From Bilabrum cf. latius (taxonomy: Eukaryota), in the NCBI GenBank assembly GCA_965178125.1, contig OZ237740.1:496001-560000 (forward strand): DNA of 64,000 nucleotides, in the 5' to 3' direction. Made by a program: the position numbers and the translations under genes. Each line of letters begins with the position of its first letter. The first letter of the stretch is position 1. The notes below the pieces were generated by a model. That model saw nothing but the letters and a program-made list of their open reading frames with translations, did no database searches and was not told where the DNA came from. Below are positions 1 to 64,000 of this stretch, piece by piece.

Positions 1-3000
1 ATCACCGACTGTGTGGACGCGTTCTTGTAGTTTCCGGCCATGATGTGCAGGTCCTTGCCCTCCCACTCGAGCTCACTGGCGGCAGCCGCTTCGTTCACGA
101 TCGACCGCACCAAGCCTTGGACGTCGTGCGCAGTCGCGCCGGACAATGCGACAATGTGCGCGTGTGGAAATAGCCAGGCGGCATCTTCGGAGGTCTGCAC
201 CATGCCCAATTCCCCCATGAGGCCGCTGTCGTACAGCAGGCTGGCCAGGTGGTCCCGCCGCCGCCCGTGGGTCCACTCCGACCACGGCGGCGTCCCCGAT
301 TCGGTTGCTGCAGGTGGTTGCGTCATTCCTTGCGAAGTTGTAACCCCTCGCATTGGATGAGCGACCTACTCCAAGATCTCGTCCGAATCGGCCGCTGTGT
401 CGTTCGCGAAGTGGTCCTTTGCCAAGCGCACGGTCCGCCTCATCATGTCGTTTACTCCGCCCTGCTTCCTGGCTGCACTCAGCAGAGCCACCAGGGCCTT
501 GGCGTAGTCGCGGGGCTCCCACCGCCTGTCTGCCTGCATCACAAGGCTGGACGCCAGTGTTTCTTTCCTCAGTAGCGGTGGCAGTACGATGCCCTTGGGG
601 TCTTGCATGCCGACTGCATCGCCGGGGTCGAACCGCTCTTCACCTGCTGCACTACCTGTTGCTTCCATGGGACCGCCAGGCATCCCGATCAACGCTCCCA
701 TGAGGGCGGGCGACAAATCAACCGGGCCAGCACTTGCAGCGAGCTGAGAACACGCCGTCAAGGGGGTCAGCCTCCTGACCAGCTGAAAGAGACCCACGTG
801 ATCGAGTGCGATGCGGTCGCTGGCCAGCCTGGCACTCTGCAGACGAACGAATGCAATCGGCTGCCTAGGCATGATCTGTCCAATCAGCATGCTGGAAGCA
901 GCGTTAATGCCCTGTATGCTCAGTCCATGGTACCGCTGCTTTGCCTTGAGCCACGCGTCTGCATTCTCGGACAGATCCCTCCACAGGTCAACCGCGGCAG
1001 GGCGCACGTATCCCTCGAGGGGGTCCAACCCATGGCTGGGCTAGCCGTCCGATTCCCTCTCTTGCTCTTCATTCAATTCCTGCTGCACTGAGGGAGCGTT
1101 CGGACCCAGCACCACGTACCCCGGACATGCTCTCGTGATGCCAGCCTTCCTGCCAAGCTCGGAGGATTCGGAGGCTATCCCAAAGGAAAGGAGGAGCTGC
1201 TCCCGCTGGTGGTCCGAGCGCACACGCTTTGTCACGAATTCAACCAAGTCAGCGTGCGCGCGGATCGAGGCATCGAGCCGTTCCTCACAAATAGCGCGGA
1301 AGCTCGGGAGATGGTCGCCACATCCCGCCCCTTCAGTCACCTGGTGCGCGTGGAGCGCGCACGCCGCAGCGGCCCCCTTGGAAATCACTTCCTGCACGAA
1401 ATCGTTGAGGTCAAACGTCTCATTGTCTTGCCTAATCCCATCAACCGTGAAGTGCCTCAGGCGAAGCATGCTCTTCAGTTTGCTGACCGTGCTGAATCCC
1501 CACCCCCTGTTGCTCTGTTCCCAGTGTGACAGCGTGATCGCTCGGTCGCACAAGTGCCTCATGCTGCCGTTCTCAGCAGTCGCCACAATCCGCAGAGCGT
1601 GCGCCACTCCATCAACTTGAGATGCGCTACTCCCGGTTTCGGCACCCTCGTCTGCTATATCAGTATCACTCAGCTGCTGGAGAAGCTGCCGCGACTTGAG
1701 CACCCATCTTACCGTGCTTGCACCCACAAGCTCTCCTCGCGATTGCGTGCAGATCTCAAACATCCGGTCCACCAGCACCGTCATGCATTCCGACAAACTG
1801 GTCAGCAGCTCTTGTCGCGACTCGTTCGTTGCTTCTGTGTGCTCACCAGATGCGGCACTCCATGCCTCGACGAGCCTGCGCACCTCGGCAGGTATCCCAT
1901 CCGGGATGGATACTTCGCACGGGTTCTTCCCCTCCATCTCTGCTTCATCCATACCCTCCATCAACTCGAGCAAAGCCTCTCGTTCACTGGAATCATTTGC
2001 GCAGTATGTAGCTGCAGATAGCAACGGGGGTCTGATGGCCAACTGCCACTCGCCGGCCGCTCTGTCCCCTCTGCGAGCACCGTGGAGGGCCTCAAGGGTT
2101 GACTCAGCCTCTTGAAGCAAGCAATTCGCAAGTATCCTGCACGATGATTCGTCTGGCTGCAACGCAATTCCTTCGTTTCTAAGTTCCAGCGCGTACAACC
2201 ACGCGGCATCCAAGCCCTGCTACGAACGAAGCGCCTGGAGCAGTGGTCCGAGCTGGGAGCTCGCATGAATGGGACACCGCTTCAGGTCATCGCCAAGAGA
2301 CGTGCCGTTCTTCTCGTCGTGTCTCGCAATGATCCCTCTCGTCGTATCGATCAGGTACACCTGCTTCTCGCAGTCGCCATGGAATGCTTCGAACAGCCGG
2401 TGCACTGTCCTGCGCCTTGGGTACAGGGGTGATTCCATGCTGCCAAAGGCCTTGACTACTCGAAGAGCAGTATCAGCAAGCTCGGTCCCCTTTCCGCTCT
2501 GTACGATCGCGTACTGCATCCTGTCAACAAGTGAAACCGACACTCTAGCAATTTGAAACCCGTCGGCTTCGTCGAACGACAGCTCGGTGCCGGCCTCCAG
2601 GCTTGCCTTGGACTCGGCAATGAACTCCGCGATTGGAGCTACACCGGCGATCGCGGCCGCGTCTGCATTCATAAAGGTAGCGAGGGCCAGCTCGAACGGC
2701 GACTCGAATCCAGTCACTGGAATCAGCGGCTGGTCAGCTATACCTCTACTACTAGGCTGATCCACGTGCAGCTTCTCCTTGCCAGCGCGCTGCTTCCGCC
2801 CATCCTTGCCGCCACGTTTCGCTTGTTCTTTGTGGGGCTTCGGTCGGAACTGAATGCACGAGGGTGAATTGGCAGGTAGCAGTCCCTAGTCCAACCACGC
2901 CTGCAGCTTTTCCTGGCTGTGCAGCACGACTGATCTCGTGGAGCGAATCACGGGAGGTGCATGCTGCCATGCGGCCGCGCATGCAGCTGCAGCGCTCGCG

Positions 3001-3518
3001 CCTTTTGCCCGTGAGGCAGCTGCTTCGAGCGCTTCCCGGAGGAGCGATTCTCGAGTTCGGTCTGCTCCTTTTGCATCGCCTTCGTGTCTGCCGGCAGCGC
3101 CAGCTTCTGAGAGTGGTGCCTCAACACTCGTCAGGCCCCTGAGGACGTACGTGGCAACTCCCGTCGAGCCCGTCTGTGCCGCGCACTTGAGGGCGGCGTG
3201 TGCAACATTCAGATCGAACAGTTCCGCCTGAGACACCTGCTCGAGAAACGAGCAGGCAAGATTGTCGCCACCCTCTTGCAGCATCGCACCGGTGGCTACG
3301 CCAAACAGATTGCGAGCTCCAGACCTGCCAGCGCCACAGAAACGTACTACTTCAGAGAAATCAAGACTGTTTTCAGGCGCAAGTACCTTTGATTGTGCGT
3401 CCCTGAGCAAAGCCTGGATTATATTGATTTGAATTAGGACACTGAGAGGCGGCAACGCCTGCTCTTCCAAGCAAGGGTCCAGCAACTGTCTCAAGCTGCT
3501 CAAGCTGCCTCGCTCCAT
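1..3518 (-). CDS. Large uncharacterised protein (gene X), copy 1; 3' end runs off the left edge of the window
   Basis: ORFs 2886-3518, 2220-2765, 1041-2213 and 366-1028 are in one frame, separated only by TAG (2886, 2220, 1041, 366). Near-identical to 48742-52259. The start could lie 15 nt upstream (ATG GCA TAG AAC TGG, 3533). Confidence 0.75.
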
Positions 3519-4048
3519 CCAGTTCTATGCCATCTGCTAAAACACGGGTGCAATTGCTTGCATCAGAGGCACGCTAGAGTTCCATTCCGTCAACACACAT
3601 TCGCAAATGCTCGCAGCTAGGTCAGTCTAATTTAGCTCTAGCGCTGCAGACAGCGTACCCTCGATATCGCTCGCTTTTGGAGGTCGTCTGGTTCTAAGCC
3701 TTGCAATTAGATCCTGGCATTGCTACTGGACAGATGATACAGTAGTATGGCTGCTCTGTAGCCGCCCTTGCAGAGCTATAGGATTGCCAGCCAACTGGAA
3801 TCGAGACGTGCTCTGCAGAGATACAAGGCTCGGGGATCGAGCTGCAATCAGACCCCAATGATACGCTAGACTAACACTACGGGCAGAAACAATCCGACGG
3901 CAGTGACGCATCGTCCTTGCAGCTGTAAGTGCTCGAAAACACCGTTCGTGCTCTTGCTTTCTGTTGTGTGCAGTGTGTGGTATTTCAACAATCGAAGTGC
4001 AACAGCCGGTGAGCACCGATTAAACTGAGGTATGCCTGAGAGCTGATC
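3519..4048. promoter_or_regulatory. Divergent intergenic region / putative bidirectional promoter between genes X and Y
   Basis: Lower-GC ~530 bp spacer between head-to-head genes, conserved in copy 3 (52260-52789). No specific motif identified. Confidence 0.45.
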
Positions 4049-7000
4049 ATGAGTAGTAAAGAAAAGGATAAGAAGCCTGCTGGCGACGAGGAGGGGGGTG
4101 AAGACGCTGGAATTTCCGGGGCACTTGGGCTCGATGAATCTCCTGATGCCGGTGTTGACGATGCAGACTACGTTCTGCGCGACAGTGATGATGAGGGCGA
4201 CGATGAAGTGAGAACAATAAACACATCAAGTATTACTGCCTTGGTTCGCGCTGGATCTGTGTTCTGCATGCAGCAAATCACCTGTTGCGAAACGCTGGCT
4301 CTTCATTGCACTTGTTTTGCAGGATCCTACGATCGACATTCATCAGTACTTGCGCACATCTGATGATGTGGATACTGCTATTGAGTACACCAAGCTAAGA
4401 CCGTGGTCAATCAAGCTCAGCCGCTTTGAGATTTCCAATGACTCGGACGCCGAGATGTCACCTTTCCTCGTTGTTCGCTTGGAGGACCAGAACGCGGTGC
4501 TTCCCGCATGCGAAGCTTGCGTGAAGGGATGCTGCATGACAGATCATATCCCTGAAAGTACCGCGGTTCAGTCTCACACGCTCATGGCTCGGAGCCTCCC
4601 GCCAGAACACACGCATCGGATCGAGGACCAGGACGTGCGCCTGGCCGGATGGTCTCGGGTGAACGGGGAGCATGGTTACGAGCAGAACATCGACCTGTCC
4701 TACCGATCAATCTGGGACTATGCAGTATACATCGAGCTGTGGGACCACTGCTGGCCGCGCGCCAACAAGCTGCTCGGGGTGCAGAGGCTGCTCCTCCGGC
4801 AGGTCATCGTGCAGGCGCCCCAGATGCAGTTCCAAGTAAGGAACAGAGACCCGGCGGCCAGCAGGGGAGAGGCCCCCCGATTCATTGCCACGGTGGCGTA
4901 CAGCATAGAGGTGGAGGTCACTGACCCCGAGTACGTTCTGAGGCTCAGCCGGTGGCAGGCAATGGTGGCCAGCACGCTGCTGAGGCGGGGCGTGGCCGAC
5001 CCAGAGCCCGGCTGCTGCGGCTGCGAGACGACCGAGGGCGGTCCGTAGCTGAATGAAAAGAAGCGCATTCTGTGCGACTACGACTCGATTGAAAGGATCC
5101 CTGAAAGGGAATCGCAGGGAAGCCAGCAGGACGGCGCAAGCGGGGCGTCTGGGTCCGTGTCCTCCGTGGATGCAGCGAGGCAGCAGGCGAGAATAGCGGC
5201 GCAGCTCCCGATGGAGCCCCTTCTCACTGCTGATGGCCCCGCGTTCCTGCGGCAGCGAATCGCTCGCCAGTTGCGAAAGACCGCGGGAAGCTCTAGCGGC
5301 ATGCTTGGCGACCCAGTCGCTGCGGCCCCGCCTGCCGGATCTAGCCTCCGCTCCACGGTGCAGGAGGCCAAGGCGCTGTGGGGAAGCGCCCCGGCTGGCA
5401 TCGGTCCTGCACTGCTGCAGCACGATCGAGTGCTCCAGTCGCATGAATCAAAGAGGGAGCCGGGGTGGGTGCAGCAGGGCGCTCTGCTGATCGCTCGATT
5501 CGTCGTGGTGGACGACAGTGGGAGCAACCGGTCGGACATGATCGAGATGTCCTGCCCCATCGCTGCCGATGCGCAGCTTGGAGGGTCCGTGGATGCCGCG
5601 ACCGTGGTGGGTCTTCTCGCAGCCACTGCGGGTAACGGATCAGCGAAGGTGCCAGAGATGCACGTGCGGGGCACACGCTCCCAGCTCGAGTCAATGCGAC
5701 TCAAGGTGCAGGTTCTCATCCGCAACGTCAGGTCTGCCCCGCGTAGCTGTCCGACGTGTGCGGGCTGCTCCACGTGCGTCGATGCCACCCGGTGCGAAGA
5801 CTGTCTGGATGATTGCTGCAGGGCGCGTCTGTTCACTTCAGCAAGCACCCGGGGAAAGCCGCACGACCCGTACGCACCTTTCAACCTCGGAAATAGCATG
5901 GTGATCGAGTCATCATCGCGCCTGTAGGGCGTGGCCAGCCTGTCCTTGCAAGGGTGCACCACCAGTTTCCTGGCCCCGCTCAGCGGGCACGTGGTCTTTG
6001 ACTTGCCCGCCCTCCGCATGGCAGGTTGGCCCCGGGCGGGCAGGAGAGCCAGGCAGCAGACGTCGCTGCCGGGCTTGCCCAACCTGCCCGGACAGGGACT
6101 GAGGCCTCATTTGGCCAAGGGTAGAGTCATTGGGGCTCTGATCCGAGGCTTCGTAGAGTGGCGCGCGATGAAGAACAGGCTGCTGCCCCTGTTCAGCCAG
6201 CCCGCCTCCGCGGTGTCTGCCGGAGCCAGGTTCCAGAAAACGCTGGCCGACGCGGTGTTTGTGAGCTTGAAGTCGAAAAAGGCGAACCCGGACGCTGAAA
6301 GCGGTACCGGGCTGGTCGGTGACGTAGAGACGGGTGACGGCGACATGGACGATTCGAGCAACAGGACGGGGGTAGTGGGCAGCACGCCGGACGGCAGCGC
6401 CTCCCAGTGGCCGGGTGTGCTCTCGGGCACGGACGCCAGCGCGAAACTGAGGCAAGCTGGGGTACAGGCTCGAGTGCGGCCCTCTCGATTCCTGAAGCCC
6501 GTGCACAAGAGCGTGGAGCATTAGCCCCACCTGGTGATCAACCTAACCCAGATTGGGGGGATCGAGAGGCTGCTGGGCGCCCTCCGCGGCGACCCCGTGG
6601 TGGATGCGTCGACTTCCGTGCAACGTCTCGAGCAAGGACCGGGGAAGGATGCCGGATCCACCGGTGGAGAGGACAGGGATTTTGTGATCGCGCTGCGGTG
6701 GGCGGGTCAGCAGCACTCCGTGGCGGCCACCGCGACATCTCGAGGGGTGCTGAGCGCGAATGGGCCCTTGTTCCTTGAGATTCCACTCACGCCCGGAGCA
6801 CAGGAAAAGCTCACTGGGATTGTCAGCTCGGTGGACGACTCATCTCAGCAGACAATGTTCCGAGAGGAGCTGATCGGCGCGCTGAGTCAGCTGAGGGCCA
6901 TGCAGCTAGAGGTGTGGACCGCGCCCGGGATCGGGCCCGTGGACCTGCAGGACGCCTCCAGACTGACGGAGCGGGCCGTGCTGCTGGCTCGAGGAAGCCT

Positions 7001-10000
7001 GGAAATTCCATTCGAACTCATGATTCCCATCATTCGGGAGGAAGTGGTGCCCCCCACCCCCTGGCAGAGGGCAGCGCTGGCACTTGGGCCCATCATGAGC
7101 GTGCTCAGCTGCTGCTCCAGCAACGATCTCACCAAGCCGGAGCAGGACAGATCGCCCAGGGGCCTTCACCTGAGAATCCCCATGCTGGGGCCTGACGGAA
7201 CCATCCGGTCGGGGGCGGCGATGCGGCGCACGCGGTGCGAGATCGGCCTTGATGTCGAGCTGGTGGGTCTCCTGTGCCCTGAGTCGGCCACACAGATGGA
7301 AGCCAGCCCGGACATGATCGAGCGGGAAACGGAGGCCAAGGCGCTGGGCTCCGTGGCCTACCCTGTCATGGTGTCGAAAGGAATGCCCTCGGGGCACAAG
7401 CACCTGCAGGGTAGCCTCAAGCCCGACCACTCCGACACAGCGGCCGACAGCATCATCGATAGGATATTTGAGGTGCCTGTGTCCGACCTCCCCGTCGGCA
7501 GGAGAGGCTCCTTCTGTCCCCCCGATGGGTCCACGTGGTGTGACAGCGTGTTCATGAGAGCATCGACGGACACCTTCAAGATGGCAACGCTGCGACTGGC
7601 CGCTCTCTCCAGCCCGATCGCTGCTCGGCGCGAGCCCAGCAGGCTGCTTGCTGCGCTCGACCGATCGCTTAGCGATGCAGTGTCTGCGGCTACAGCCGAC
7701 AAACCCTCCAGCGCTGGGTCTGCGGCTTCGGCTAGACTGGCTGATGCAGGCGTCACGCGGCCCATGCCGGCGTGGTGGCGAGCCCTCGCTGCCGTAGGTA
7801 GGGCAGCCCAAGCTCTGGCTGGCACAACAGCGTCCACTTAGTCGAGCAGCCTTGGCGGCACGATCGCCTCTTCGCACCCCTTGCTGCGGCTTCACGATGT
7901 CTAGGGGACTTGCTGGGTGCCGTGCCAGTATGTCGTGGATGCGCCTGTGCTTGTGAGGCTGCTGTAGCATTCTGTTCAGCAGGAGAGGCAGCTGGATCGC
8001 GTGCTGAGCAGCGCGGTGCGTGCGGGGGCCATGCCTCAGCTGGCCGGTCCCTCCAGTTTCAAGAAATTCAAGCACCTTGGAAGCATGCTCCGCCTGGACG
8101 TGGACACGTCCATTAGGCAAACTGCCTTGCTGGAACTGCACGCCGCACACAGGAGACACCTGCCGTGGCGCGCCATGCAGCTATCTAGGTCGGTGCGCTT
8201 CCATCGGACCGACTCGGCCTACGTTGACGCTTCCCTGCAACAGTGGCGCGGCCGAAGCGACCTACTCGCGATCTCTAAGGCGACTGGGGCAGCAGAAGCA
8301 AAGGAGCGCGCCCTGTCCATTTTGACCATCGCGAGCGCGCAGGGTTGGTCTCCAGAAGTACTGCATGGTGATGCTAGTCAGGAGGAGCGGGTACTTGAAG
8401 ATGTTGCGCTGGATGAAGCAAATCCACTGGCAGATTTCGGGATTGATGATGAGCTGGACAGCGGGGTGGAGGGCGAGGAGGGCGAGGAGGGCAAGTCGGC
8501 CGATATTCACGGCGAGGCAGAGGAGTTCAAAGGGATTGCTGGAGGGTCAGGCGCGGTGCAGCGCGGCAGATCCGCGGGTGGGGCCGCTGCGGTGCTCGAG
8601 GAGACGGCGGACGACGAGCTCTTTGTGGGCACGGCTGCAAGCGAGCATGCCTAGGAGCGGCCGGCGGCTTTAGTGGCGCGGGTGCTGCAGCAGCCTGGCG
8701 ACCCCCGGGTGCTTGCCGATGAGTTGCTCGGTGTCGCGGGCCATGAAACTGGCGAGGACTCTGATAATGGTGGCGCCAGCAGTGGATACGGATCGGATGA
8801 GGGCGAGAGCAAGCACGGCGTCGGCGCTACCCAGACAGGCATACCCGCCCTGCCCACTGAGCTGCAGAAGGTACTCGAGCGCTGGCCCAGGGTGGTCAAA
8901 CCCGTCGGTCATGTGCTGCAAGACGGCCACGCGTCGGTGGTGGAGCACGCGATGCTGCTCTGCTCCTTGCTCCGGAGTCTGGGCGAGGATGCGTACGTCT
9001 GCGCCGGGCTCGCTTTGCCGTTAGGAGGGACTCAGCCAGACGCAGATGCTGGTAGCTATGCAGAGAATGGTGGCTCTTCTTCGCAGACGGCTGGAGCTGA
9101 TGACCCAGCCGCGGATGCTGCCCGTGCTGCTGGGAAGGAGGAAGCTCAGATGGAGGGTTGGATGCGCCTGGCTGGAATCCGACCGACCTCCAAGTCACAG
9201 GCAGGGGGCGGCGCCGCCGACCATAGGGTCAAGCGGGATCCTGGACTGGGCCTGCGGGGATACCTGTCGGACGGGGGGGCTTCTCCTGGAGACGATGGCA
9301 TCGGCGGGGACGTTCCTGGGCATGCGATGCAACCGAGCATCAGCGATCGCAGGATGGCAGCCACGCTTGCAAAGATCGACGCGATAGACCCGGACGGAGA
9401 CCGTGTCGCCAGGCCGCACCCCGGGGTGCAAGAAGAGTTGCACTTTTGGGTGGTCGTGTTCCCCAGAAAGCAGGACGAGGAAAGTCCAGAGTGGCACAGC
9501 AGCGCCATGCGGGACGAGGTGGCCATGTCGAAAGGAGTCCCCAAGGAGGTGCAGGCGGCTTGCGGTAGGCGGCCTGAAGACGCCCAGGAAGAGCGGAGCC
9601 AGCTGGGCGATGCCATGATTGCGTTTGGTAGAGACCACGCCTACCGTGCGCTGCACTCTGAATTGGGTGGCCATGCCGTGACGTCTTCGTCCTACTCCCA
9701 TTCGTTTCGCTGCTCCCACACCATCACAGGCCCGCCCAAGTCTTCCCTTTTGCACTCGTTGCATGTACAGGAGAAGGCAATGTGGAAGCCAGTGGCGCAC
9801 TACCTGGCTAGCTTGATGCCCCTGATGCGAGTCGAGGTAGACAAGGGCATCAGAAGTGAGCTTGTCGAGCGAGGCCATCGGGCGGGACAAGCCCAAGCGC
9901 TGAACGGCGGCCAGCCGTCCCAGTCACGGCGGCTAGATTCATCTTCCTCGTCCGGCCATGCATCCGATCACGACAGGCTAGTGGCCCAGGGAACAAGCAG

Positions 10001-10924
10001 AGGAGCTTCCGACGAGAGCAGTGGCCACAGGCGGCGGGGCGGTGATACAGTGGCAGCAGCGGCGGCGCGGCTGCTGCTGTGGCAATCCGCCCTTGAGAAG
10101 CCCAGTCAATTCGAGGAGCCTCCCTCGCTTAGGTCCAAGAGACTCGAGAGGAAGATGGTAGCGGGCGGAGACAAGCTGGTCACCCCGGGACACAGGCCGA
10201 GCGCCGCCCCCACTGTGCAGGACGATCCCTTCCACACTGCCGAGACAGGCATGCCGGGTCATACCCCCAGGCGCCTTCAGAGGTGGGACAGTACGGACAA
10301 GGCATCCGTCGGGGCCCTGCAGCAGCAGTACGTGGCCCTGCTGCGGTCAGCCACTGGGTTGAGCAGCCCGCCTAGCCCGATCGCCTCACTCACTCCGATC
10401 GGCACTGCCGTGCCAGGGGTAACCCCGCCCAGGATGCGGGCAGCCCCGGGCGAGGCAGACCCGCTGGGACCAGCCGCAGTGGCGTTCACGGTGCAGCCTG
10501 ATTTTTTCGAAGTCTCGAGCACGTTCGGAGCCGATTCAAATAGGCAGTGTGGAGCTCCCTTGCAGCCGCTCGCTCACCTCGCCGCCTTGAGATGCTTCTT
10601 GGGCTCCCCGGCTGCTACGGTTCCCGACTTGAGGGCGTGCAGTGCGATGAACGCCCCGTGTTCTTCTGCCCAAGCCGCAACGTATTTGTCTCTGGCGTCC
10701 TGCAGAAGGGCGTGCGCCTTGCGTTTAGCTGCGGTGTCCGCCTGCCTGTTGATGAACACGTTCTGGTCGTCAAACATCATCAAAGGGCGCCTAAACCTGT
10801 TCCTGTACTATTCAGCAGTCGCCAGCTCCTTCGCTACTTCCGTGGGCAGCCCTGCGACCACCTCAGCTGGAGGCCACGATGCGTACCGGCCTGGTGCGAT
10901 GGACGGCAGCGTCAGCCAGGGCCG
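4049..10924 (+). pseudogene. CEP76/CC2D2A-like gene Y, copy 1; 3' part inverted and truncated
   Basis: Exon 4049-4207, intron 4208-4322 (GTGAGA...TTGCAG, phase 0), then one frame through TAGs ending at 5048, 5927, 6524, 7841, 7904 and 8654. Colinear with copy 3 to ~10522, then a ~380-bp inversion, 22 bp of resumed colinearity and a retroelement. The C-terminal ~300 aa are missing. Confidence 0.75.
10522..10902 (-). other. Local inversion of gene Y coding sequence
   Basis: Reverse complement of ~59263-59639. The minus-strand ORF 10574-10783 (MMFDDQNVFINRQADTAAKRKAH) equals the plus-strand ORF starting at 59385. Confidence 0.9.
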
Positions 10925-12540
10925 AAATCATTGAGGGTTAGTGCTCGGAGTGGCCCAGGGTGCAGACGGAAAGGCTGCTATCATCACCAATGGGAATGGA
11001 GTACCACAAGGCTCTCCACTCTCCTCCGGCCTCTTCTGCCTGGCACTGGACATCGCCATCAAGCTGACTGCGTACGAGAACAACTCGACCCTGATCACTG
11101 CCATCTCCGACGACATCTTCATCATTGGAGAAATCCCAGACCTCGAGCCAGCCATCGCAGACATCATCGCCAACCTCAACGGCCTCCACCTCCCCGTGAA
11201 TCCCAGCGAAACCACCTTCTTCTCCAGGAGTGCCGACACCCAAGCCCAACTTCAACAACACCACACGCCAGTTCCGTGCCATCACCTGCAAACGCCTGCA
11301 TTCACCTCCCCGTCTCTGCCTACCCTCTCCCTCATTTTTCGCAGAAACAACAGACCAACCACCTCTGAAGAGAGGCCACAGGAGTACCTGCCATCATGGA
11401 ACCGACAGGACTACTGACCTAGGCACCAGGGACGGAAGCGCAAGGAGAAGGTGAACAACTACGGCCAGATCTAGTGGTCACAACTGGTACACAGACCAAG
11501 GACATCATCATCGACGTCCGAGGAGTGGATTGCTTTGCGAAGACGTACAAGCCTAAGCATGTAACTACCAGCAGCAGGACTAAGGATACCAGAAGCAAAG
11601 CGAGGCTCAAACAGAAGTGACGAAAGCGCAGAGAACAACGGGGTGTAGAACAAGCTGGAGACGTACAGCAGGAAAGCACAGGCGATACATGGATGGAACA
11701 TACAAACCGAAAGGATGTACGGGACCAAAGAAATGTACGGTAAGTGATCCGGAGAAATACGTTTTTCAACCTGTCGTATTCCTCCACACTGGACTTGTAG
11801 CAAAGCAGAGCAGAGGAGTACTGAATCGACTAGCCAAGATACGCAAGGCAAGATCCTGTAATGCTTGCTCGGAGTTCAGTAACAAATGTGTAGACCCACC
11901 AGTTAATGGTGCTGAGAAAGAGAGCGACGGGGCACAGGACCAGGGTCAGACTCCCGCCGCGGAGTCGCCTGGTCCACTGGGTCGCCTCCCGCGACCCCTG
12001 CCGGCACGACCGGTGCGCCCCGTCGTCTCAGGGAAACGACTCCCTGCCAATGGGTCAATCAATTCACACAAATCACTACATCCCCAGGCAGCCCTCTTGG
12101 CTGCCTCCCCTTTTTGGCCGAGTCGTGGGTGGGTGGGAGAGAAGAAAGCTACTGGCTTGGGCTGCTTCTGTATTTCTTTGCTAATCCCGTCTAGCGCAGA
12201 GGCTGCTCTCTCTCTTTCCCCAGTGTAGACTCGAACCGGAATGACACCTCGCCGGTCGATCACAGGATCACGCCAGTATCAGCTGAACGTTCGCGAACGA
12301 ACAGCTGACCCTGCCCGGATCCTGTAATGCTTGCTCGGAGTTCAGTAACAAATGTGTAGACCCACCAGTTAATGGTGCTGAGAAAGAGAGCGACGGGGCA
12401 CAGGACCAGGGTCAGACTCCCGCCGCGGAGTCGCCTGGTCCACTGGGTCGCCTCCCGCGACCCCTGCCACCTTTGATGAACTTGGGCTGCTGTGTTGTGC
12501 AGCTGTTCCAAGTATGCCCCGCCACCACTCTTGATCTGTG

Positions 12541-15935: not shown

Positions 15936-15950
15936 CTTACCGTCTGGTTG

Positions 15951-18359: not shown

Positions 18360-21300
18360 GTTGAAGAACCAGAATACAACAATAATTTGTAGGGTAAAGA
18401 AACCAGAATACCAGATTCTGGTAACCAGAATAATTTGTAGGGTAAAGAAACCACACAAAGTAATGTGCAACCACGAATGGCTGTCACACCCCCAAGGTGG
18501 GGCCATCAAAGATGACCTCAGAGAACAACGCGATCAAAAGACCCGCAGCCCCCCCCTAGAGCAAAGGCCAAAGCCTCAAAAGAAAGCAAAAGAAAGAAGA
18601 ACCCCTCGTCCCAAAGAGGATTTCCGAAACATCATGGTGCTACACATACCGAGACGATCACCCTGAGACTCAGCCACTCATCCACCAAAGGACCAGAGGG
18701 AAGGAGAGTGAGCCCGAGCCATCCTCGTAAGGACAGCCGGACCGTCGACACATGCCATCCGCCACCAGCGGGACGTCCATGTACGACGTAGCTACTCCCT
18801 TTCACGCAAGACACAGCGAAGCGAAGTCGCCATCTCACGCGCCCAGATCCTCTCAAGAGTGTGCATGAGCCCTCTAGGGCGAGCCACACGATGTCCCCTG
18901 CGATCCTGAGCTCGCATTGCAGCATACAGGTCATCCGATGAGCTCGCAGTCCAGCCTCGCACCGAGGCCCCAGTCCACCACCTGCAGGCAGTCCAGGACG
19001 GAAACGTTCTGATCTTTACACTCAGCTCATCAACCACCAGTGTCGCAAGCCGTACCAATCCAACAGAGGCGCTAGAGCGGGCAATTGCTCGGCGCATCTT
19101 GGGAATGGTTCGCTCAGCAGCAGCGACTCCACGCCTGTCCTGCTCCAGAGGTTGTGGGTGAGGTTCAAGACGTAGGCCATGGTCCGCCCATGCCTTCCTT
19201 ATCTTGCCCTTCTCCTCTGAAGTTCGACTGGCCCAGTCACCGGAGACCCACTCTGCCTGAAGACCACGTGACTGCAGCGATGACTCTCGGCGAGTCATCT
19301 CCACAGCCACCTTGAAAAAAGAAACTTTGGGGGGGGTCTGATATTTTGTGGACTCAACTCAAAAGCGCACGCTATCACGAAGAAACATCTGGAACGAGGG
19401 CCCGGGACATACCAGACTTCACGCTTCAGCTGCAATGGCCTAAACCACCTAAGCTCCACCCGGGGGACCCATTTCCCCCTGGGGAGCGTCAGCATTCACG
19501 TTCCCTCCGGCGCCCGCTGCCGGCACCCCGCCCTGCTGCCCGTTCTGAGCCAACCCTGCCTTGACGTTGGCGATCGCCACGGCGAGGTTGTTGTTTTCGG
19601 CTGCCCCTACAGCCAGGCTGGCAAAGTCCTCCCGGACCGCCCTTGCGAGCGCCCGTTTGGCCTTCGCTGCAGCCCTCCTCGATCCCTTCGAGACAAAATC
19701 GAGGATCCTTGAGTGGTCCTGCATGACCCGTGAGTACATAGTGTGGTACACACGCTGTTCCCCGCGCACGTGCTGGTGCTAGGCGGCCACGGAGAGGCGA
19801 GCCTTTGCCACAGAAGACCACGAGAGGCGTGCGTTGGCCGGACGAGTCGAAACCCGCCGCCCTTTGTCCTCCTACCTCTTCTTCCGCAACTTGTCGAGCA
19901 CCTGCAGGAACTCGACCGACTTCTCCCCGATTCCCCCCAACACGTCCACCACAAAGGGTACGACCCGCACGCCACTGCGTACCGCCCCTTTCTGCGTCCT
20001 CACGGTCCCAGGACACCACTTGTCTTCTCCTCCGATCCGGACGCCGAGCGCTCCGAGGTCGACGGGCCTGCCGTAGCTGGCCAGCTTCGTGGCATGCGCG
20101 GCCCGCAAAGCAGACCCCTCTTGCCAGTCGCTGCCAATCCTCCACGACGAGCGGTCCCACCGGTAAGTTGCCGCAGTGGAATCAACCACCGTGACATCGA
20201 TGAGATAAGCCGTCCCCTCGTGCTCAAAGAATAGGTCGCCTCGTGGCACGAGCGGACCGCGCCGACCCGGCAGCCGGGCCACTTGGCCCTCTGGCTCCCG
20301 GATAGGGCGTCTGCCCGTGGCCTCGCGGACCACCTGCTCGAGCACGTTGAGCACCCGGAAGTGCCTGCGGCCTGAAAGGCCTCCGCAGACACGCTTGTCC
20401 TTGCACGTGGCACCGTGGCGAACTGACTAGATCAGTTCGACTACCTTGCCCTGCTTCCGGCACCCCGGGCAGATCTGCGTGACGCGCCACGCCTCCCCAC
20501 ATGCACCGTGCGTTGCCCCAAGAGGTTGTGGGGGACAGCTGCACGGCTATGGGATGGCGAGACGTTGGCAGAACATGCCCCGGGCGTCTTCAGGCTGGAC
20601 TCGGCTCAGGACAGAGAGCGGCGCATGCAGCCAAGACCCGGCTCCTTGGGACCTGGCGGCGCGGATTGTGGCTCGCGCCACTCCTGCGTACTCTCTGGTG
20701 ACTGCATCGACTGGAGCGAGTCTGTCGTGCGCAAGCGGAGATGAGGCATCCCAGAGGAGCCTCTCCACCTGCACTCGCTCAGCCAGTGCCGTCACATGGC
20801 TCTGGTTGTGCCCTCCTGCGGCACCTTCGAGAAAACGAATAACCGCCTGCGATGCGGTGGGTGCCGGCTGCTCCCCAGCCAGCTGCCTCGTCACCCATGC
20901 CCGAAGGTCCTTCACCTCCAGGCGCCAGGGTTCAGTGGCCCCACCGCACAGCTCCATACGGGCTGCCTTCTCGGCTGGGCTGCCCAGGAGTTCCGAAGTG
21001 CGGGCTGTGTCCCACACCATACCATAGCGTGGGGGGACGTCAGCCTCCGGAACAAGTGGAAGCAACGGACTCGGGAAACCAGCCATCCCGAAATTGTCTT
21101 GCTTCCCCTCTTGTACGAGTCTCCCGTACTTCGAGATTGCGGTCATCACAGTGTCCACAAGGGAGTTCAGGCGCGCGGTGCGCCCTCGCAGTGGGTTCAG
21201 CAGAGGGGGTGCCTCCCCGGCACCTGCCGCCGCACCTTCCCCGACCTCCTCCGCCGGGTCCCACTGGTTGAGCGCCACCTGCAGGTGTGGCAGGTTGAAG

Positions 21301-21908: not shown

Positions 21909-22010
21909 AAAGAAACTTTCGATAGGTTTTGTTGTGTGTGATTTTCTCAATACGTTATTATCGGGACTTTCGGAAAAGGATCTTCATTCTACCAGACCTC
22001 TTCTCATACA

Positions 22011-43403: not shown

Positions 43404-46400
43404 ATGCTGGCAGCTATTTTGCTCTGCATGGCCCCGCTGGTCCGCTCAAAAACAACCAAGGTGCTCAATCATACTATTATTGGTATGCGTGAGCTGGGTA
43501 GAGGGCAGTCTGAGTGGACTCAAGATCCTATTCCGTCAATCCTTCTGTGAGCTCGCTCGATACTACACACACCATAAATCAAGAAGCTTTTCGACGCAAG
43601 TCGAACGCCCGAGTAATCTGCTTAAATGATTTGGCGTCTACTACCTACGTTCAGCTCCTGTATTCCGTGTGTCGCAGGCTGTAGTGTGACGTGACAGCTG
43701 AAAAAACTTTGGGCTTCCTGTCGCTTCACAACTTGCAAGGCAGCAATTCTCATGCGGCTCTTTAGTCTGCAGCATCCGGTATGATGCGTACAAGGGCTAC
43801 TACGTACGATCCCCCAGCGACGCAGTGCACGGCTCTTGATCACCCCCTTCTGCAAGGCCAGTTGCTACCCCATCATGTGGCCTTCCACCAGATGTCCCTC
43901 GCAACCTCAGAAAAAGACTGCCGGTCTTCCGACAGGGCAGTCAAAGCTTCAACATCATCTTCTTACACGATTGGACTGTCTGGTATGATCCCAACCCCTG
44001 TACTGACGCTCGACCTGGGGCTCTCGGTGTCCAGCAGCCACTCACTCGAGACTAGCACAGCCACTCAAGCCCGTGTTGTTTCAGTGTCAGAGACTCTCGA
44101 GACATACGGATTGAGCTTGCAGGGCCTTGCATTGACTCCTTCGTGTGAACAGAAGCAGGGAAGCGGCATGGCATGCGTGTCTGGATCATCCTTTCCCCTC
44201 AAGCAGCAGTACAAGCAGGCGGTTGAGTCGTTGCCAAGCCCACCGTCATGTTTGGAGAACAGCACCGAGAAGCTACCTGCGAGCGGCCTAAACCTTGTGG
44301 GGCTGCATTTCCACCACAGCAGAGGTACAACCATGGTAGTCGCCACGGTCCTCGGCGGCAAGATCTCACTGGTTCAGAGCTTCCAGCAGAACGAACGGGA
44401 CGAGAATGAGGAGAGCGAGCAGTCCTATACCGCCGAGGTGTCCATGGAGAAGCTGTTAACGACAACGACAGACATTGCAGTGTCAGAGGCAACGACTTCG
44501 CATCATTCTACTGTGTCAGATGGAGCTGGCGGAACCATCGAGCATACAACTGAGACAAAGGTCGTAGCGAGCCAAGAGACTGGACCTGAGGTGGTCAACG
44601 GCGACCGAGATTCTGCGGGCAGCCAGTACGCCAAAGGTGAAGCGGCGAAAGGGCTTAATTCCGTCATGACTGTGGCCAAGGGGGCAATGGACGCTACCAG
44701 TGGGGCACACCTTAAGCTGCAGTTCGGCATGCAGTCAAAGCAGTCCAGGTCTTCCGCAGCAAGCGATGCTCTTGATCGTGTTCAAACAGAGGTGTCTGGA
44801 GGCATCGTTGGGCTGACGTCAGTGGCACTCAGCCCTGAAGGGGGCGTCAGCGGGTCTGAGGCCGCATCGGCAGAGATTCATGGAGTGTCTCACTGGGTGG
44901 GGTCCGTCCAGTCCGGTGGCACACCCCAGAGCCGCACCACGCAGAGCTTGCCCGTGGCAATCGTGGACGAATCAGGATGCACCCCTGCCAACAACCTGGA
45001 AATGATGCTTGCCGTGGAAAACAAGCAGTGGTGGCGAAAGGAAGCCACGGACCCCTAGGAACAGCCTATCCAGGACCTTTCAGCGCCAGATGAGTCCATC
45101 TCTTCGGAAGAAGGCAAGGCCGGTGGCAGCGACTCCAGTCCGCGAGCACCAGAAATTGGCAGCCTCGAGCAAGACGAAGATGGCAAGACCGATGCTGGTG
45201 AACAGATCGTGCCAGATGCATTGCTGCAGACAGCAGTGCGTGGGCACACAGAATCGGCGCTCGACCTGGCCTAGAAGGTGTTCGAAACAGTCCACCAGGA
45301 CGGTAGCGCCAGCAAGCCTCTTCACAACGTGTTGAAACAGGCCGCCAGTAGCAGTTTGAGCAGCACCCACTCCATCCGCTTCAAGAACTTCGGCACCTTG
45401 CTGCAGTCTGCAGCTATTGCCACGAGTCGGAATGGAGGGGAGTCCTGCAGGTCACTACCGGGAATCGCCCAGACCGCAACGAACATCCAAGTCCTCGAAG
45501 ACATCGGCCTGATGTGCTGCCGCGGCGGAGTCCACTGCCTGCCACGCGATCGTTCAACTGCAACGATGAAAACTGCAATGCGCGCGGAGCATGCAACTGC
45601 CTCGGAGTGGGTGGCGGCAGCCGGTGAGGCCAACGGTGAGAACGGCACCGTCACCCGAGCGCTGCTGGTTGCCGCTGCCGTAGAGCTGAGCACGATCGCG
45701 ATTCCAAGCGACGCTGTACTGGTCGTGTCGGCGTCGTGCTGGCAATCTGAAGCTGTTGAGGCCACGTCTGGCATCGGAGATCGAACGGTGGTGGCGTACT
45801 ATGACCAGGACTTGGAGACGTGGCTTGTGGCAGACAAGGATGCACCCCGGCTGCTGACGATGACGGAAGCGTTCGGGTGCCTCCCAGCTGTGGACTTGTC
45901 CGAGGACGCCGAGGCTGCAATCCTGCTGCCCCGCAGCAAGACCGAGCACTTTGAGCCGAAGGCCTACGTTGCCGCGCTGCTCGCCTCTCGTTTCGTTGCC
46001 GAAGGAGACACCGAGCTACTACGCACGCTCATGACACGGGGCGTGATCAATTGGGCAGACATGGGCCAGGAGCAGAGTTTCGCGCTGTAGGCCTACCAGC
46101 AGGAGCTAGAGGCTGCCGGTATTCTCCAAGCTAGTAGCAGCAGCAGCGGCTCGGAGCGGAGCGCGATCCTGCTGCAGTCACAAGGAGCCTCGTTCTCCTC
46201 GTCCGTGCGGGTGGAACGAGGTCAGCACCGGAGACTGAGGCGGAATCGAGCAACGCGGCATGGGCATCTCCGGCACGATGCCGGGCATTCTGTCGCAGTC
46301 CAGCGTGGATTCCCTCATGTGAGGGTGCTGCAAGCGTCGCTGCGCGGGGTCGGGAGCATGCTACACGACGAAGACGTCAGTTTTCCTGCCTCATACATCG

Positions 46401-46981
46401 ACACCCTCGGTGCCGAGCGAGACCTGAGGTACAACGAGGAGAAGCTGTGGAAGCAGCACGACGAGTCGCTCCAGAAGGAGGTCTGCGTGAGCGGTGGCAC
46501 GCACCGCGTGCTGGCCCGGCGGCAGTTCCTATCGAAGACCAAGCAAGTGCTCCTTAACCTTTACAAGCAGCTACGGGTTGCGAACAAACAGGCAGAGCAC
46601 GTGACGGTGAGTGCGCTCGGTCTCGGCGAAAACCTATGCAAGAGGGATTCTGCACGCACAGGACGCAGGGGGCGCTCTGGGGTCATCTCCACCCTGGGCA
46701 CAGCAGGTGGGATCGCTCGGAAGGCAGCTCCTCAGTGTGAGGACAGCGCCGTCATGCATTCCACGTCCTCCGCCGTCAGGAACATCGCGAAAATGTCCGA
46801 TGGAGGCTCTAGCACAGCAACAGCTGTGGCAAGCGAGCTTCGGGAGACAGTGATAAGGCTGGCTAGAGCTCGGGTGGAGGCAGACACCCCGGAGGTGACT
46901 ACCCCTGGTGGCGAAAGCGCTGGCGCGCACACGCCAGCTCGTGATGCCTAGCCCTAGGAGCAAGCACAAGCAACGGTTTGA
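43404..46981 (+). CDS. Secreted MACPF protein B, copy 3
   Basis: Exons 43404-43546 and 43678-46981, offset 15060 from copy 2, with all TAG positions conserved. Confidence 0.78.
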
Positions 46982-46993: not shown

Positions 46994-47453
46994 TTTTGAC
47001 ACGGTGGGAGTACGGTGCTGGCTGCAGGGGTGGCAGCAGCGCCTGAGACGGGTGGTCGCTTTTTGACACGGCGGGAGTACGGTGCTGGCTGCAGGGGTGG
47101 CAGCAGCGCCTGAGACGGGTGGTCGCTTTTTGACACGGCGGGAGTACGGTGCTGGCTGCAGGGGTGGCAGCAGCGCCTGAGACGGGTGGTCGCTTTTTGA
47201 CACGGCGGGAGTACGGTGCTGGCTGCAGGGGTGGCAGCAGCGCCTGAGACGGGTGGTCGCTTTTTGACACGGCGGGAGTACGGTGCTGGCTGCAGGGGTC
47301 GCAGCAGCGCCTGAGACGGGTGGTCGCTTTTTGACACGGCGGGAGTACGGTGCTGGCTGCAGGGGTCGCAGCAGCGCCTGAGACGGGTGGTCGCTTTTTG
47401 ACACGGCGGGAGTACGGTGCTGGCTGCAGGGGTGGCAGCAGCGCCGAAGACGG
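46994..47453. repeat. Tandem array of ~7 units of 67 bp
   Basis: Same unit as 31934-33130 at lower copy number. Confidence 0.95.
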
Positions 47454-47599
47454 AGGCTCGCTGAACAACTGTACTCGCTTTATATTCTCTTTGTACGCAA
47501 TGCACATGGTGGCACCATACGTACGCCACCAACGTGTCCAGCGCACCAGACCTACAGCAGCAGAGGCCACGGCGTCCGCCGCTTCACGCTACCGTGCCC

Positions 47600-60938: not shown

Positions 60939-63900
60939 ATGACCCCCAAAGAGCAGTACCACGCCGTGCAGCGATTCGCGGACGAGGCCATCACTCACGC
61001 AGCCACTGCTCAAGAACTGCGACGCCTAGAGCGAATTTCAATAGAAGCCTTCGGAGAGTACAGCGAAGAGCACCTTTCCGTGATAACAAAGCGGATCTCG
61101 GCTGAAAACACTCGTGCAGACGAGGACAATGCGGTTGTTAGTGCCCATGCAGCATGCGGTCTTGCCATCGAGCTCGCCGCTGGCACGGCTCAGCATGCGG
61201 GTGATGACAGTGAGGAACACGCTGATGCTCTCACGGTGGTATCGGACCAGCATCTTGCTCTGGGTCTGCATCGTGAAGCATCTGCCGCCTTGGAGGCTCG
61301 TGCTGCTATCGTTGCCAAACGCTTTGGCGCTGGCTCGGCAGAGGCCTTCGAGGCGGCTTCGCGGTTGGCTGAGGTGCATCTAATGATGGATGATTGCGAT
61401 AAAGCAATCGAGATTCTTGCTGCTCCTGCACATGCCGTGGCTGCTTCATCCGGAGAAGGTAGTGCCGAGCACTTTCGTGCGACGATGTACTGGCGAGAGG
61501 CCTTGACACGAGTCGGCCTTCACGACGAGGCTATCGCCCTCGCCAGAGGGATAGTGGATCGGGAATCAGCAGGCAGCGCGGCCACTGAAGGCCAATCCAA
61601 AGGGGTGATTGGGGATGCTCGTCGCAGGAGGGCGGCCTTGCAGCAGCTTGCAGGCGCGCTAGAGGAGGCAAGCGGTGCGATGGAGGAAGAAGACGAAGAT
61701 GACGAAGATGACGAGGATTCTGACTGGGTCGATAGGCCAGATGGCACTGACGAGGACGACGACAGCGACGACGAGGAATGGAAGGAGGGCGCGGATCAGA
61801 ATGATGATGACGAGGATGGCTCCACTCACGGCTGCAGCGCCGACTCAGGAGGGGGAGGGGGGGAGGAGTCGCCAGTGGACAGCAGCGGTGATACAGGACA
61901 TGGTGCTGTAGACATGGGGGGTGCAGCGACCGATGCTGATCATGCAGGCTCCGTAGTCGCGGCCGGTCCTGCTATAGGCGCTGCTTCGGGAGCCGGTGCT
62001 GATCCGGATCCTGCAAGGGATGCGCAGCCCTCTGCGGTTCCAAAGTCCGGTAGTAGCGTGGCGTCGTTAGGCAACGTCGATAGTGACGATGATGGTGGCA
62101 GTATACTTGAATCCCTACACGATACAAGAATGGATGAGCCAGTCCGCCAGGCGATGCTGGCCGAAGCCCTGGTTATCAGGGCTGGGATAGTGGAGGAAAT
62201 TGAGGGGCTGCTGGTCGAGAAAGCAGCTCCTGGGATAGTGGAGGAAATTGAGGGGCTGCTGGTCGAGAAAGCAGCTTCTGCTCCTTCTACCACTGCTCCT
62301 ATCTCAGATGTATCGGCTGCCAGTAGTAGCAGTGGGACAGAGGCTGCAACTGACAAGCCCTCACTGGCCGAGGAACAGATCGAGGCACTGGGTGCCTTGG
62401 CATGCTGCATCGAAGCGGCCCAAGATCCTGCAATGGCTCTTCCTATCCACGAGAAGCGAGTTGGTCTAGCTCTTGGATCTCTTGGCTTGGACTCAGAAGA
62501 GTTTGAAGAAGCTCTCGAGGGGCATGGCAACTGCCTGGTCCTCGCCGGCAGGCCCGACGACGCTGTGGCCGTACACTTGAGGCACATGGACGCGATCGCT
62601 GATTGCAAGGGCCCGAAGAGCGACGAGCTGCTTGCCGCCCTCACATGGCTGGCCGACTATGCGTCGAAGCTCGAAGACATCTCACCAGAGACGGTGAAAT
62701 CCTTGACGATTCGGCTGCTGAAGCTGTCAGCGACCGTAAAAGGGGTGGCATCAGAGGAGCACGAGAGCGCCTTGCAAGCCCTCCTCAAACTCCTGGTATC
62801 AGCTGGAAACCATAGGAGTGCAACCACTCTCCAAGAGCAGCACCTTGCTGCAGTTGCAAAAGCAGAAGGTAAGGAGACCGACGCATACCGGACCGGAAGG
62901 CTCTAGCTCGCCCGATTCCTGCGGGCTGCTGGCAGGCCAGAGGAGGCCCAGACAATCGCAAGAGATGAAATCAAGCTAGTAGGCCGTACGTACGGCATCG
63001 GCAGCCAGATACACCTCGAAACTATCAAGATGGCTGCGAGCAAGTATAAACGGAAGAGCCGGTCTTTATGGGATAGATGGGAGCCCCCATTGGAACGGTT
63101 GTGCATATCGCTGCTTGATGAGGCCGTGGCGAATGCAACGGAACGGTGCGGCATGGACAGCGAGGAGGCACTGCAGTGCATTGTCAGACGCTCTGAGATT
63201 CTGGAGGATCTTGCTTTTGACGACAAGAAGCCGGAATGGTCAATGGCTGCGGTTCAAACGGCACTGAGGCTCCATGGGTCCTCGAGTTTCCAACACGCTC
63301 GGGCTCTGTGCGCTCACGTCCGCAGCCTGGTTGACAAGCATGACGCTGCATCAGCCATTTAGATTCTAGAGAACCATCTTGACATTTATAGAGACGGTGG
63401 GGCTGGTTGCGACCTACTAGTGCGTGAGGCGAGAGGAGCCCACTGGCAGACGTGTAAGAGGTGGCGGACTAGGTCACGGAGGGACGACGGCAGCGCCTAC
63501 CTTCCCTTGATTCAGCGGCTTGAATCAGTGATCCTCGGTGGAATAAAAGCCTTGCACGGCACGCAGGCTGGGGAGGATGCCGCCCTAAAGTACTGGGCAC
63601 TCTGGTGGGACTTCTGGTCTGAGCACCGCGGCATGTTTATGCCTGAGAAGCTCTTCTCCTGCTTTGCGGCAGCGGTTGCCTCCTACAGCGGAGAGGACTC
63701 CGGCTCGTTCCTGATGCTCCTGTAGGGCCAGGCCAAGAAGTGTCTAGAGGTTGCAACAACCGTGCACCACCCCGAGCCGTGGCGCCTTTCGGATAGATGG
63801 GCAGACGGATCTCTAGACTTGTCTCGGGACACCCCGGAAGGCATCGCATGCAGGGCTTGGCTTGATGCGGTCAGGGCGGCACTGCCCATAGAGGAGGTGA

Positions 63901-64000
63901 TTGACTGCCTGATGCGTCTTGTCGAACGAGAGCGGCACCGTCTCCCCGAGAAAGATGCTACTTAGCTACTTGGCAACATCCTGAAGCTGCCCCATGCGAG
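60939..64000 (+). CDS. TPR-like alpha-solenoid protein with an acidic insert (>1000 aa, runs off the window)
   Basis: ORFs at 60939, 63030, 63420 and 63762 are in one frame joined by TAGs ending at 62906, 63362, 63725 and 63965. Kinesin-light-chain-like helical repeats (e.g. GAGSAEAFEAASRLAEVHL). A 48-bp in-frame duplication lies at 62182-62277. Confidence 0.72.

Follow-up and report, generated by a model that had tools for sequence, protein, structure and literature searches.

Nuclear genetic codes in which UAG and UAA carry different meanings are few; those described belong to Iotanema, to one rhizarian, to Scotinosphaera and to a small number of ciliates. In Iotanema spirale (Fornicata), UAG is read as glutamine (Gln) while UAA and UGA still terminate, the pattern of NCBI table 15 (Panek et al. 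2017, PMC5304391), and its eRF1 is reported to have a GTS-to-GGS change (PMC9161772). Among ciliates, Protocruzia tuzeti and two phyllopharyngean lineages use UAG alone for Gln and UAA as a stop (McGowan et al. 2024, PMC11687900). UAG has been reassigned otherwise, with UAA kept, in the rhizarian exLh (Leu) and in Scotinosphaera (Ser) (PMC5304391, PMC11687900). The UAR=Gln code (NCBI table 6), in which both codons are Gln, occurs in many ciliates, hexamitin diplomonads, ulvophytes, Streblomastix and Amoeboaphelidium protococcarum (PMC11687900, PMC6299283); for Amoeboaphelidium, TAG and TAA are both described as Gln (PMC6299283, PMC5304391). Here, we analysed a 64,000-nucleotide stretch of contig OZ237740.1 (positions 496,001 to 560,000, forward strand; hereafter the window), whose long reading frames are interrupted by TAG. 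The window is likely to be nuclear DNA of a GC-rich eukaryote in which UAG is a sense codon, most probably for Gln, UAA is unused in genes, and each gene end seen is a UGA. A sequence-only reading of this DNA had proposed that UAG is read as Gln while UAA is not reassigned, and the analysis supports it: TAG behaves as sense, Gln is the best fit, and no TAA occurs where about 14 were expected.

TAG was counted in stop-to-stop frames, with one copy taken per gene, and six genes bear it. Over seven genes, amounting to 8480 non-duplicated codons, the coding frame contains 41 TAG and no TAA, TGA or frameshift, whereas the two off-frames of these genes contain 24 and 24 TAA, 60 and 60 TAG, and 181 and 197 TGA. 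The 41 codons are distributed over X2 (8), Y2 (8), MACPF-A (5), 'MACPF-B' (7), a retroelement open reading frame (ORF; 9) and a TPR-like gene (4); one further TAG site, beyond these, is found in copy X1 only. When TAG is taken as sense, the longest frames reach 2541, 2238, 1395, 1339, 1156, 1156, 1108, 1106, 1029 and 855 codons, compared with a longest frame of 760 codons when the standard code is applied and of 940 when TGA is read through; TAA as sense gains nothing. The window DNA contains TGA at double the frequency of TAG, yet reading TGA as sense opens no long frames. The earlier reading had counted about 36 in-frame TAGs in six unrelated frames without any TAA. The in-frame TAGs, the long frames that bear them and the absence of TAA all stand, but the count is 41 and the window holds recent segmental duplications (99.3% and 96.3% identity). 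On these figures, it is virtually certain that TAG is a sense codon. The genes are as follows, with positions counted from the first letter of the window.

52962..60584, plus strand: gene X copy 2 (X2), 2540 codons open, TGA end, CEP76 peptidase-like domain; eight in-frame TAG (53787, 54666, 55263, 56643, 56706, 57393, 57876, 59355).
4221..10934, plus strand: gene X copy 1 (X1), laid out as X2 until 10522 and divergent beyond; seven in-frame TAG (5046, 5925, 6522, 7839, 7902, 7965, 8652).
48576..52760, minus strand: gene Y copy 2 (Y2), 1394 codons, no known family, TGA end, divergent from X; eight TAG (low coordinates 52464, 52368, 52278, 52266, 51627, 50961, 49782, 49107).
3..4019, minus strand: gene Y copy 1 (Y1), 3' end beyond the window start; eight TAG, all common to Y2.
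24204..28054, minus strand: MACPF-A copy 1, two exons, TGA end, Pfam MACPF match (E=3e-10); exon 1 from the ATG at 28054 to about 27797 with a signal-peptide-like start MYYLLAVIALTCTKVRA, a 305-nt GT..AG intron, then exon 2 from about 27491 to 24204; five TAG (27480, 27411, 26247, 25119, 24714).
39276..42599, minus strand: MACPF-A copy 2 (exon-2 frame), TGA end; four TAG.
28344..31921, plus strand: 'MACPF-B' copy 1, two exons, TGA end; exon 1 at 28344-28486 with a signal-peptide-like start MLAAILLCMAPLVRS, a GT..AG intron at 28487-28617, exon 2 at 28618-31921; seven TAG (28622, 28703, 29996, 30212, 31028, 31889, 31895).
43514..46981, plus strand: 'MACPF-B' copy 2, TGA end; seven TAG, the codons identical in place to those of copy 1.
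19419..21983, minus strand: retroelement ORF, 5'-truncated, 854 codons, TGA end; nine TAG (21846, 21804, 21504, 20547, 20427, 19872, 19779, 19449, 19440).
60912..63998, plus strand: TPR-like gene, single copy, 3' end outside the window; four TAG (62904, 63360, 63723, 63963).
22011..23420, plus strand: gene o492, 470 codons, no TAG, TGA end, no Pfam family.
37123-38778: o551, a paralogue of o492, TGA end; the part matching o492 is without TAG.

The domain of gene X is Pfam PF24656 (CEP76 peptidase-like; 31.6 bits against a cutoff of 27.8), and the label 'flagellate' rests solely on this domain. The label 'MACPF-B', also from the sequence-only reading, did not hold up well: the protein has no Pfam match, and BLASTP against MACPF-A gives E=0.03.

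The TAG-bearing frames show the pattern of differences between copies that is expected of protein-coding genes. Differences at codon positions 1, 2 and 3 number 31, 19 and 74 in MACPF-A, 14, 5 and 31 in 'MACPF-B', and 42, 44 and 84 in gene X; judged from these copies, the third-position bias indicates selection over the TAG-bearing frames. TAG is present in both copies at 26 of the 29 TAG columns of the in-frame paralogue comparison. Contigs of four public runs (X2, X4, X6 and X7; run X2 is distinct from gene copy X2) were aligned to 19400-31930. Two joints are present in runs X2, X6 and X7 and absent from the DNA-like run X4: 27489->27795, whose CT..AC borders correspond to GT..AG on the minus strand, and 28486->28618, with GT..AG borders. 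Each lies at the 5' end of its MACPF gene, in gene orientation, and both fuse a short signal-peptide-like first exon in frame with the long TAG-bearing frame. A 3280-nt contig of run X7 covers 28696-31930 gap-free and passes its TAG sites without a joint. Since the counts of T>C and A>G differences in the RNA-like runs are not above those in X4, there is no sign of editing. Transcripts with TAG spliced out or edited, which the sequence-only reading had named among the observations that would overturn it, did not appear in these contigs, as judged for editing from 40 of 194 difference rows. These findings place TAG inside genes that are conserved, selected and apparently transcribed and spliced.

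An environmental relative of gene X has the same property. With the C-terminal 1091 residues of X2 as query, HMMER (cutoff E ≤ 0.001) gave nine matches: six fragments of 78-345 residues, together with P0013 (2639 residues), P0014 (376 residues) and P0017 (1343 residues). Where they match X2, the fragments have 49-95% identity to it. One of them, used to scan metagenomes, identified the contigs L001 and L002, identical over a 1833-base overlap and with 60-62% G+C; merged, they comprise 4772 bases, and the organism behind them is referred to as R1. In R1, one frame is open for all 1590 codons, with nine TAG, no TAA and no TGA, while the longest standard-code frame is 389 codons. Its protein is 60.8% identical to that of X2 across 1555 residues. 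Since the R1 frame is continuous with TAG as sense, five of the gene-caller fragments (78-345 residues) are a single R1 gene cut at TAG. The sixth fragment, P0012 (86 residues, 95% identical), ends precisely where X1 and X2 both have CAG, a coincidence that hints at another TAG/CAG pair. For P0013 (29% identity), which lies on a contig of 231 kb, gene calling with the standard code gave one unbroken frame of 2639 residues, so its organism has a gene X without in-frame stops; the code change may therefore be confined to a sub-clade. X2 aligns to P0013 from residue 33 through the C-terminus, and its TGA end coincides with the C-terminus of three orthologues. In both copies of gene X, the first ATG does not come before codon 79 (4221-4455 and 52962-53196), although homology to P0013 begins at residue 33; a short upstream 5' exon, like those of both MACPF genes, is likely.

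The identity of the inserted residue can be approached through codons that face TAG in near-identical copies and in orthologues. Among near-identical copies, TAG exchanges with CAG three times and with AAG once, and no in-frame TCG/TAG or TTG/TAG exchange occurs. TAG at 7839 in X1 is CAG at 56580 in X2; on the minus strand, TAG at 24714-24716 in MACPF-A copy 1 is CAG at 39789-39791 in copy 2; and codon 479 of the retroelement ORF (TAG, 20547) is CAG in all four runs (20549 A>G). The AAG exchange is that of 9135 (X1) with TAG at 57876 (X2). Copy comparison bears out all three paralogue exchanges that the sequence-only reading had listed (7839/56580, 24714/39789 and 9135/57876). Between X2 and R1, 13 aligned columns contain TAG: one has TAG in both, two have TAG against CAG, and the remaining ten partners are E, R, R, I, G, G, P, P, S and S. 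At the shared column, P0013 has Q, in a poorly conserved context; one of the TAG/CAG columns is the Q of the block VNR-Q-TD, which is conserved in P0013 as well. Summed over 20 partner residues, BLOSUM62 scores are 27 for Q, 13 for E, 6 for K, 4 for R, 2 for S, -33 for Y and -44 for L. Leu, Tyr and Glu are self-conserved at 65-75% in the X2/R1 alignment (Leu 75%), but of the 12 one-sided TAG columns none has Leu as the partner, none Tyr and one Glu; frequent matches to these residues would have spoken against Gln. The standard Gln codons are themselves conserved in just 38% of cases between X2 and R1, with which a Gln partner in two of 12 columns is compatible. Furthermore, the end of 'MACPF-B' reads as had been described, TAG-CCC-TAG-GAG-CAA-GCA-CAA-GCA-ACA-GTT-TGA. 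What favours Gln over Ser is the set of CAG exchanges among near-identical copies, together with the two conserved-Q columns and this Q-P-Q-E-Q-A-Q tail. TAG accounts for 10.7% (about 11%) of Gln codons. The TAG at 19779-19781 does sit in RLSVAAQ of the retroelement ORF, the putative conserved RLE motif of the sequence-only reading; Pfam, the databases searched and the PDB gave no relative with which to compare it. As far as codon exchanges and alignments can tell, TAG very probably encodes Gln.

TAA behaves differently from TAG. The ratios CAA/CAG, AAA/AAG and GAA/GAG are 0.27, 0.25 and 0.45, and pooled NAA/NAG is 0.345. Given 41 TAG, 14.2 in-frame TAA are expected if TAA were a Gln codon; none was observed (Poisson P=7e-7). 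In R1, the CAA:CAG count of 21:37 and the nine TAG predict about five TAA, and again none is seen. The sequence-only reading had named frequent in-frame TAA at Gln columns as grounds for giving it up, and neither the window genes nor R1 contain a single one. The absence of TAA in X2 and R1 is no by-product of ORF calling, because the extent of these genes is set by homology, and no TAA is hidden in the genes, because TAA as sense adds only 2-9 codons at the 5' side. It is very likely that TAA is not a sense codon, or is an extremely rare one. All ten frames with a visible 3' end (X1, X2, Y2, both copies of MACPF-A, both copies of 'MACPF-B', the retroelement ORF, o492 and o551) end in TGA, in agreement with the earlier statement that every definable gene ends so, and in X2 the end lies at the conserved C-terminus.

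Several observations weigh against this reading. None of the ten gene ends is TAA or TAG, so that TAA as a terminator rests on no example. Two TAG stand at most ten codons before the TGA in two of seven genes, 'MACPF-B' (both copies; 31889-31897 and 46949-46957, plus strand) and the retroelement ORF (19440-19451, minus strand); when TAGs were placed at random 200000 times, a fraction of 4e-5 of the trials had at least two genes of this kind, with a 12-codon window that was picked post hoc. In the 12 one-sided columns, the empirical X2/R1 likelihood is 0.57 for Q, 0.37 for S, 0.03 for R and 0.002 for E, with Leu and Tyr negligible, and Gln faces TAG in two of them against a background of 4.1% (binomial P=0.08). 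A tRNA scan found no tRNA genes in the 64-kb window, which also contains neither of the decoding parts to be expected, a tRNA-Gln(CUA) and an altered eRF1. Runs X2, X6 and X7 are taken as RNA on a software guess, none being on record as RNA and run X2 being marked 'probably DNA'. Finally, the comparison used contigs and not reads, and editing at single TAGs was judged from 40 of 194 difference rows, so that single edited sites may have been missed.

Whether these codons could be explained otherwise was considered from several sides. An ordinary UAR=Gln code, in which TAA is missing merely through GC bias, would accord with the scarcity of TAA throughout the DNA (179 and 155 occurrences on the two strands, compared with 417 and 455 of TAG), with the lack of any gene end in TAA and with Amoeboaphelidium as a conceivable source. 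The bias is too weak for this, however: CAA, AAA and GAA persist at 0.25-0.45 of their G-ending partners, which predicts the 14 missing codons; the off-frames of the same genes carry 24 TAA each; R1 has none in 1590 codons despite a CAA:CAG ratio of 0.57; and TAA as sense lengthens no gene by more than nine codons. We regard such a code as very unlikely here. That the TAGs are true stops, in decayed pseudogenes, in duplicated DNA subject to repeat-induced point mutation (RIP), or in codons that are spliced out or edited, might be suspected from the richness of the window in recent duplications and from the fact that CAG->TAG is a RIP-type change at CpA. Decay would not single out TAG as the sole interrupter over 8480 codons, free of TGA, TAA and frameshifts, nor leave TAG in both copies at 26 of 29 paralogue columns and also in single-copy genes. 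The R1 orthologue bears nine TAG, one of them at the same codon as in X2, and the third-position bias indicates selection. RIP is further contradicted by TpA/ApT of 0.44-0.62 and (CpA+TpG)/(ApC+GpT) of 1.36-1.61, far from RIP values, and by only seven of 59 inter-copy transitions being of the CpA/TpA type. As for splicing or editing, RNA-like contigs cross TAG unspliced, and their transition counts do not exceed those of the DNA-like run. The probability that the TAGs are stops is close to negligible.

A sense codon for another residue, Ser as in Scotinosphaera, Glu, Lys, or Leu as in the rhizarian exLh, would draw on the likelihood of 0.37 for Ser from 12 orthologue columns, the single AAG/TAG paralogue exchange, and the presence of S twice, R twice and E once among the partners. 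On the other side, three of the four exchanges between near-identical copies are with CAG, for which the neutral share is about 0.2 by our own estimate (transitions taken at twice each transversion), while in-frame exchanges with TCG or TTG are not seen. Conserved-Q columns face TAG, the BLOSUM62 sums favour Q (27) over E (13), K (6), S (2) and L (-44), and the 'MACPF-B' tail places two TAG beside two CAA. Taken together, these points make a residue other than Gln highly improbable. Leu in particular was tried as an exLh-type assignment and rejected, with none of the 12 orthologue partners being Leu and a BLOSUM62 sum of -44. Codes with all three stops reassigned (Condylostoma, Blastocrithidia and Amoebophrya sp. 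ex K. veneficum) were also rejected, since the coding frames lack TGA altogether while their off-frames contain 181 and 197; the last of these organisms fails as a match also in being described as AT-rich with all three stops in frame (PMC12005148). A further alternative would add to the reading of TAG as Gln instead of replacing it: TAG might have a double meaning by context, being Gln inside genes and a terminator near some 3' ends. Codes without a dedicated stop, in which termination depends on context, have been described (Swart et al. 2016, PMC4967479). The terminal TAG pairs of 'MACPF-B' and the retroelement ORF, at 4e-5 of random trials with the window picked post hoc, point in this direction. 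In contrast, the TGA of X2 coincides with the conserved C-terminus, standard codons too make the 'MACPF-B' tail rich in Gln, the constraint on the retroelement may be weak, and 3' ends are not resolvable from contigs. The terminal pairs may represent a Gln-rich unconstrained tail or residual TAG termination near 3' ends, and we consider a double meaning unlikely overall.

With UAG as Gln and UAA outside the sense codons, decoding can be envisaged by analogy with other UAG=Gln lineages. A tRNA-Gln with a CUA anticodon, pairing with UAG but not with UAA, would decode the codon, and an eRF1 with lost or weakened UAG recognition would keep recognition of UAA and UGA. More tentatively, the window might belong to an undescribed clade with its own origin of UAG=Gln, in which UAA is kept out of coding sequence and UGA is almost the sole terminator. 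Such a clade would have at least two members, the window organism and R1, about 61% identical in gene X; the change would be bracketed by P0013, which lacks in-frame TAG, and the code would possibly still be in transition near 3' ends. For an independent origin, which the sequence-only reading had proposed for a GC-rich flagellate lineage, three points speak indirectly: the TGA ends of the window as opposed to the UAA said to prevail in Iotanema, the dissimilarity of the window to ciliate somatic DNA, and the uninterrupted frame of P0013. A further case of this kind would be useful, since it combines a GC-rich genome that ends genes in UGA, a relative sharing the trait and an outgroup seemingly without it. 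Together, they would form a natural system for studying how eRF1 and tRNA(CUA) separate UAG from UAA, and whether UAG is captured only after GC pressure has acted and the codon has fallen out of use as a stop. On the practical side, standard-code annotation of this genome and its relatives cuts genes at each TAG, as the five fragments of R1 show.

The surroundings of these genes are those of a repeat-rich nuclear region. G+C ranges from 57 to 64% across the whole window, and about 60% is taken as the genome value. Recent segmental duplications relate 1-10522 to 48742-59263 (99.3% identity) and 23899-32393 to 38980-47453 (96.3%); a further duplication relates 32671-35371 to 46994-49712 (96.5%). 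The window resembles two copies of one unit comprising an o492-like gene, MACPF-A, MACPF-B, a 67-bp satellite, Y and X, with the copies at 1-10522 / 48742-59263 and 21965-35371 / 37323-49712 and an identity of 89-99%. The first unit copy is broken up: Y1-X1 stands at the window start, and after the satellite only the last 971 bases of Y (34405-35371) follow. Copy X1 leaves its match to X2 at 10522 and continues into an inverted 378-base copy of the next X2 piece (10525-10902, matching 59636-59263 at 93.9%), after which the RVT_1 fragment comes. From this arrangement, X1 was probably truncated by rearrangement or insertion. Three satellites are present:

12997-15936: 115-bp satellite, about 25 copies altogether; the main run, 13665-15936, accounts for 19.8, which are 98% alike.
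31934-33130 and 46994-47453: 67-bp satellite, 17.9 and 6.9 copies.
23611-24164 and 38980-39229: satellite of about 70-73 bp.

Long 'ORFs' over the 67-bp array are not genes, because 67 is not a multiple of 3. Remains of non-long-terminal-repeat (non-LTR) retroelements comprise the RVT_1 fragment at 10935-11417 (E=2e-5) and the 854-codon ORF at 19419-21983. The 3' part of this ORF (19400-21900) has a summed word depth of about 20600 in X4, where most neighbouring genes have a few hundred to about 2000, and contigs of other copies extend past 21909, where the window copy is cut; the element is thus present in many copies, the one here lacking its 5' end. In the RNA-like runs, depth is greatest over o492 and low over the retroelement, while in X4 the retroelement is the deepest region by far. 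In the 470 codons of o492, about two TAG would be expected and none is observed, the gene being the deepest region in the RNA-like runs; highly expressed genes may avoid TAG. An o492 orthologue, P0009, is 46% identical. A metagenome scan with the o492 alignment was empty, as were two viral-contig scans and one scan of prokaryote-genome contigs for related loci. Word-index protein searches with MACPF-A residues 40-700 and the retroelement ORF were empty within the length ranges searched, comparison of MACPF-A and this ORF with PDB sequences gave chance-level matches only, and an ESM Atlas search gave no usable match. The 64-kb window has zero matches to Rfam families and no match to a dinoflagellate/perkinsid spliced-leader motif at up to three mismatches. 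A giant-virus origin of the window was rejected: the spliceosomal-type joints, the retroelement remains and the CEP76-like gene favour a nucleus, and the viral-contig scans were empty.

Among the described codes, that of Iotanema is the most similar in its assignments: only UAG is reassigned, to Gln, and UAA is absent from coding sequence in both. The UAG share of Gln codons is about 8% in Iotanema and 10.7% in the window. Iotanema is said to terminate mostly at UAA (PMC5304391), whereas the window ends genes in TGA in ten of ten cases; it is known from a transcriptome, whereas the window is GC-rich DNA with retroelements, satellites and a CEP76-like gene. The UAR=Gln codes share with the window the reassignment of a stop to Gln, presumably through a mutated tRNA-Gln; they differ in that the window and R1 have no TAA in 8480 + 1590 codons, where about 14 + 5 were expected. 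In exLh and Scotinosphaera, as here, the meanings of UAG and UAA are separate, but Leu as in exLh is strongly disfavoured for the window, and Ser as in Scotinosphaera is less likely than Gln. A full-text search, covering mainly the openly available literature, gave no GC-rich non-ciliate eukaryote with UAG=Gln besides Iotanema. The ciliate codes with UAG=Gln only are alike in that UAG is Gln and UAA is not sense. The window itself contrasts with them: over 64 kb it is GC-rich and contains segmental duplications, satellites of 67-115 bp and what is left of non-LTR retroelements. Long GC-rich DNA of this kind, bearing satellites and retroelements, does not resemble the somatic (macronuclear) DNA of ciliates. 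The features of the window fit neither Iotanema nor the UAG=Gln ciliates described. UAG=Gln with UAA outside the sense codons is nonetheless a code type already known, to which the window probably adds a further case.

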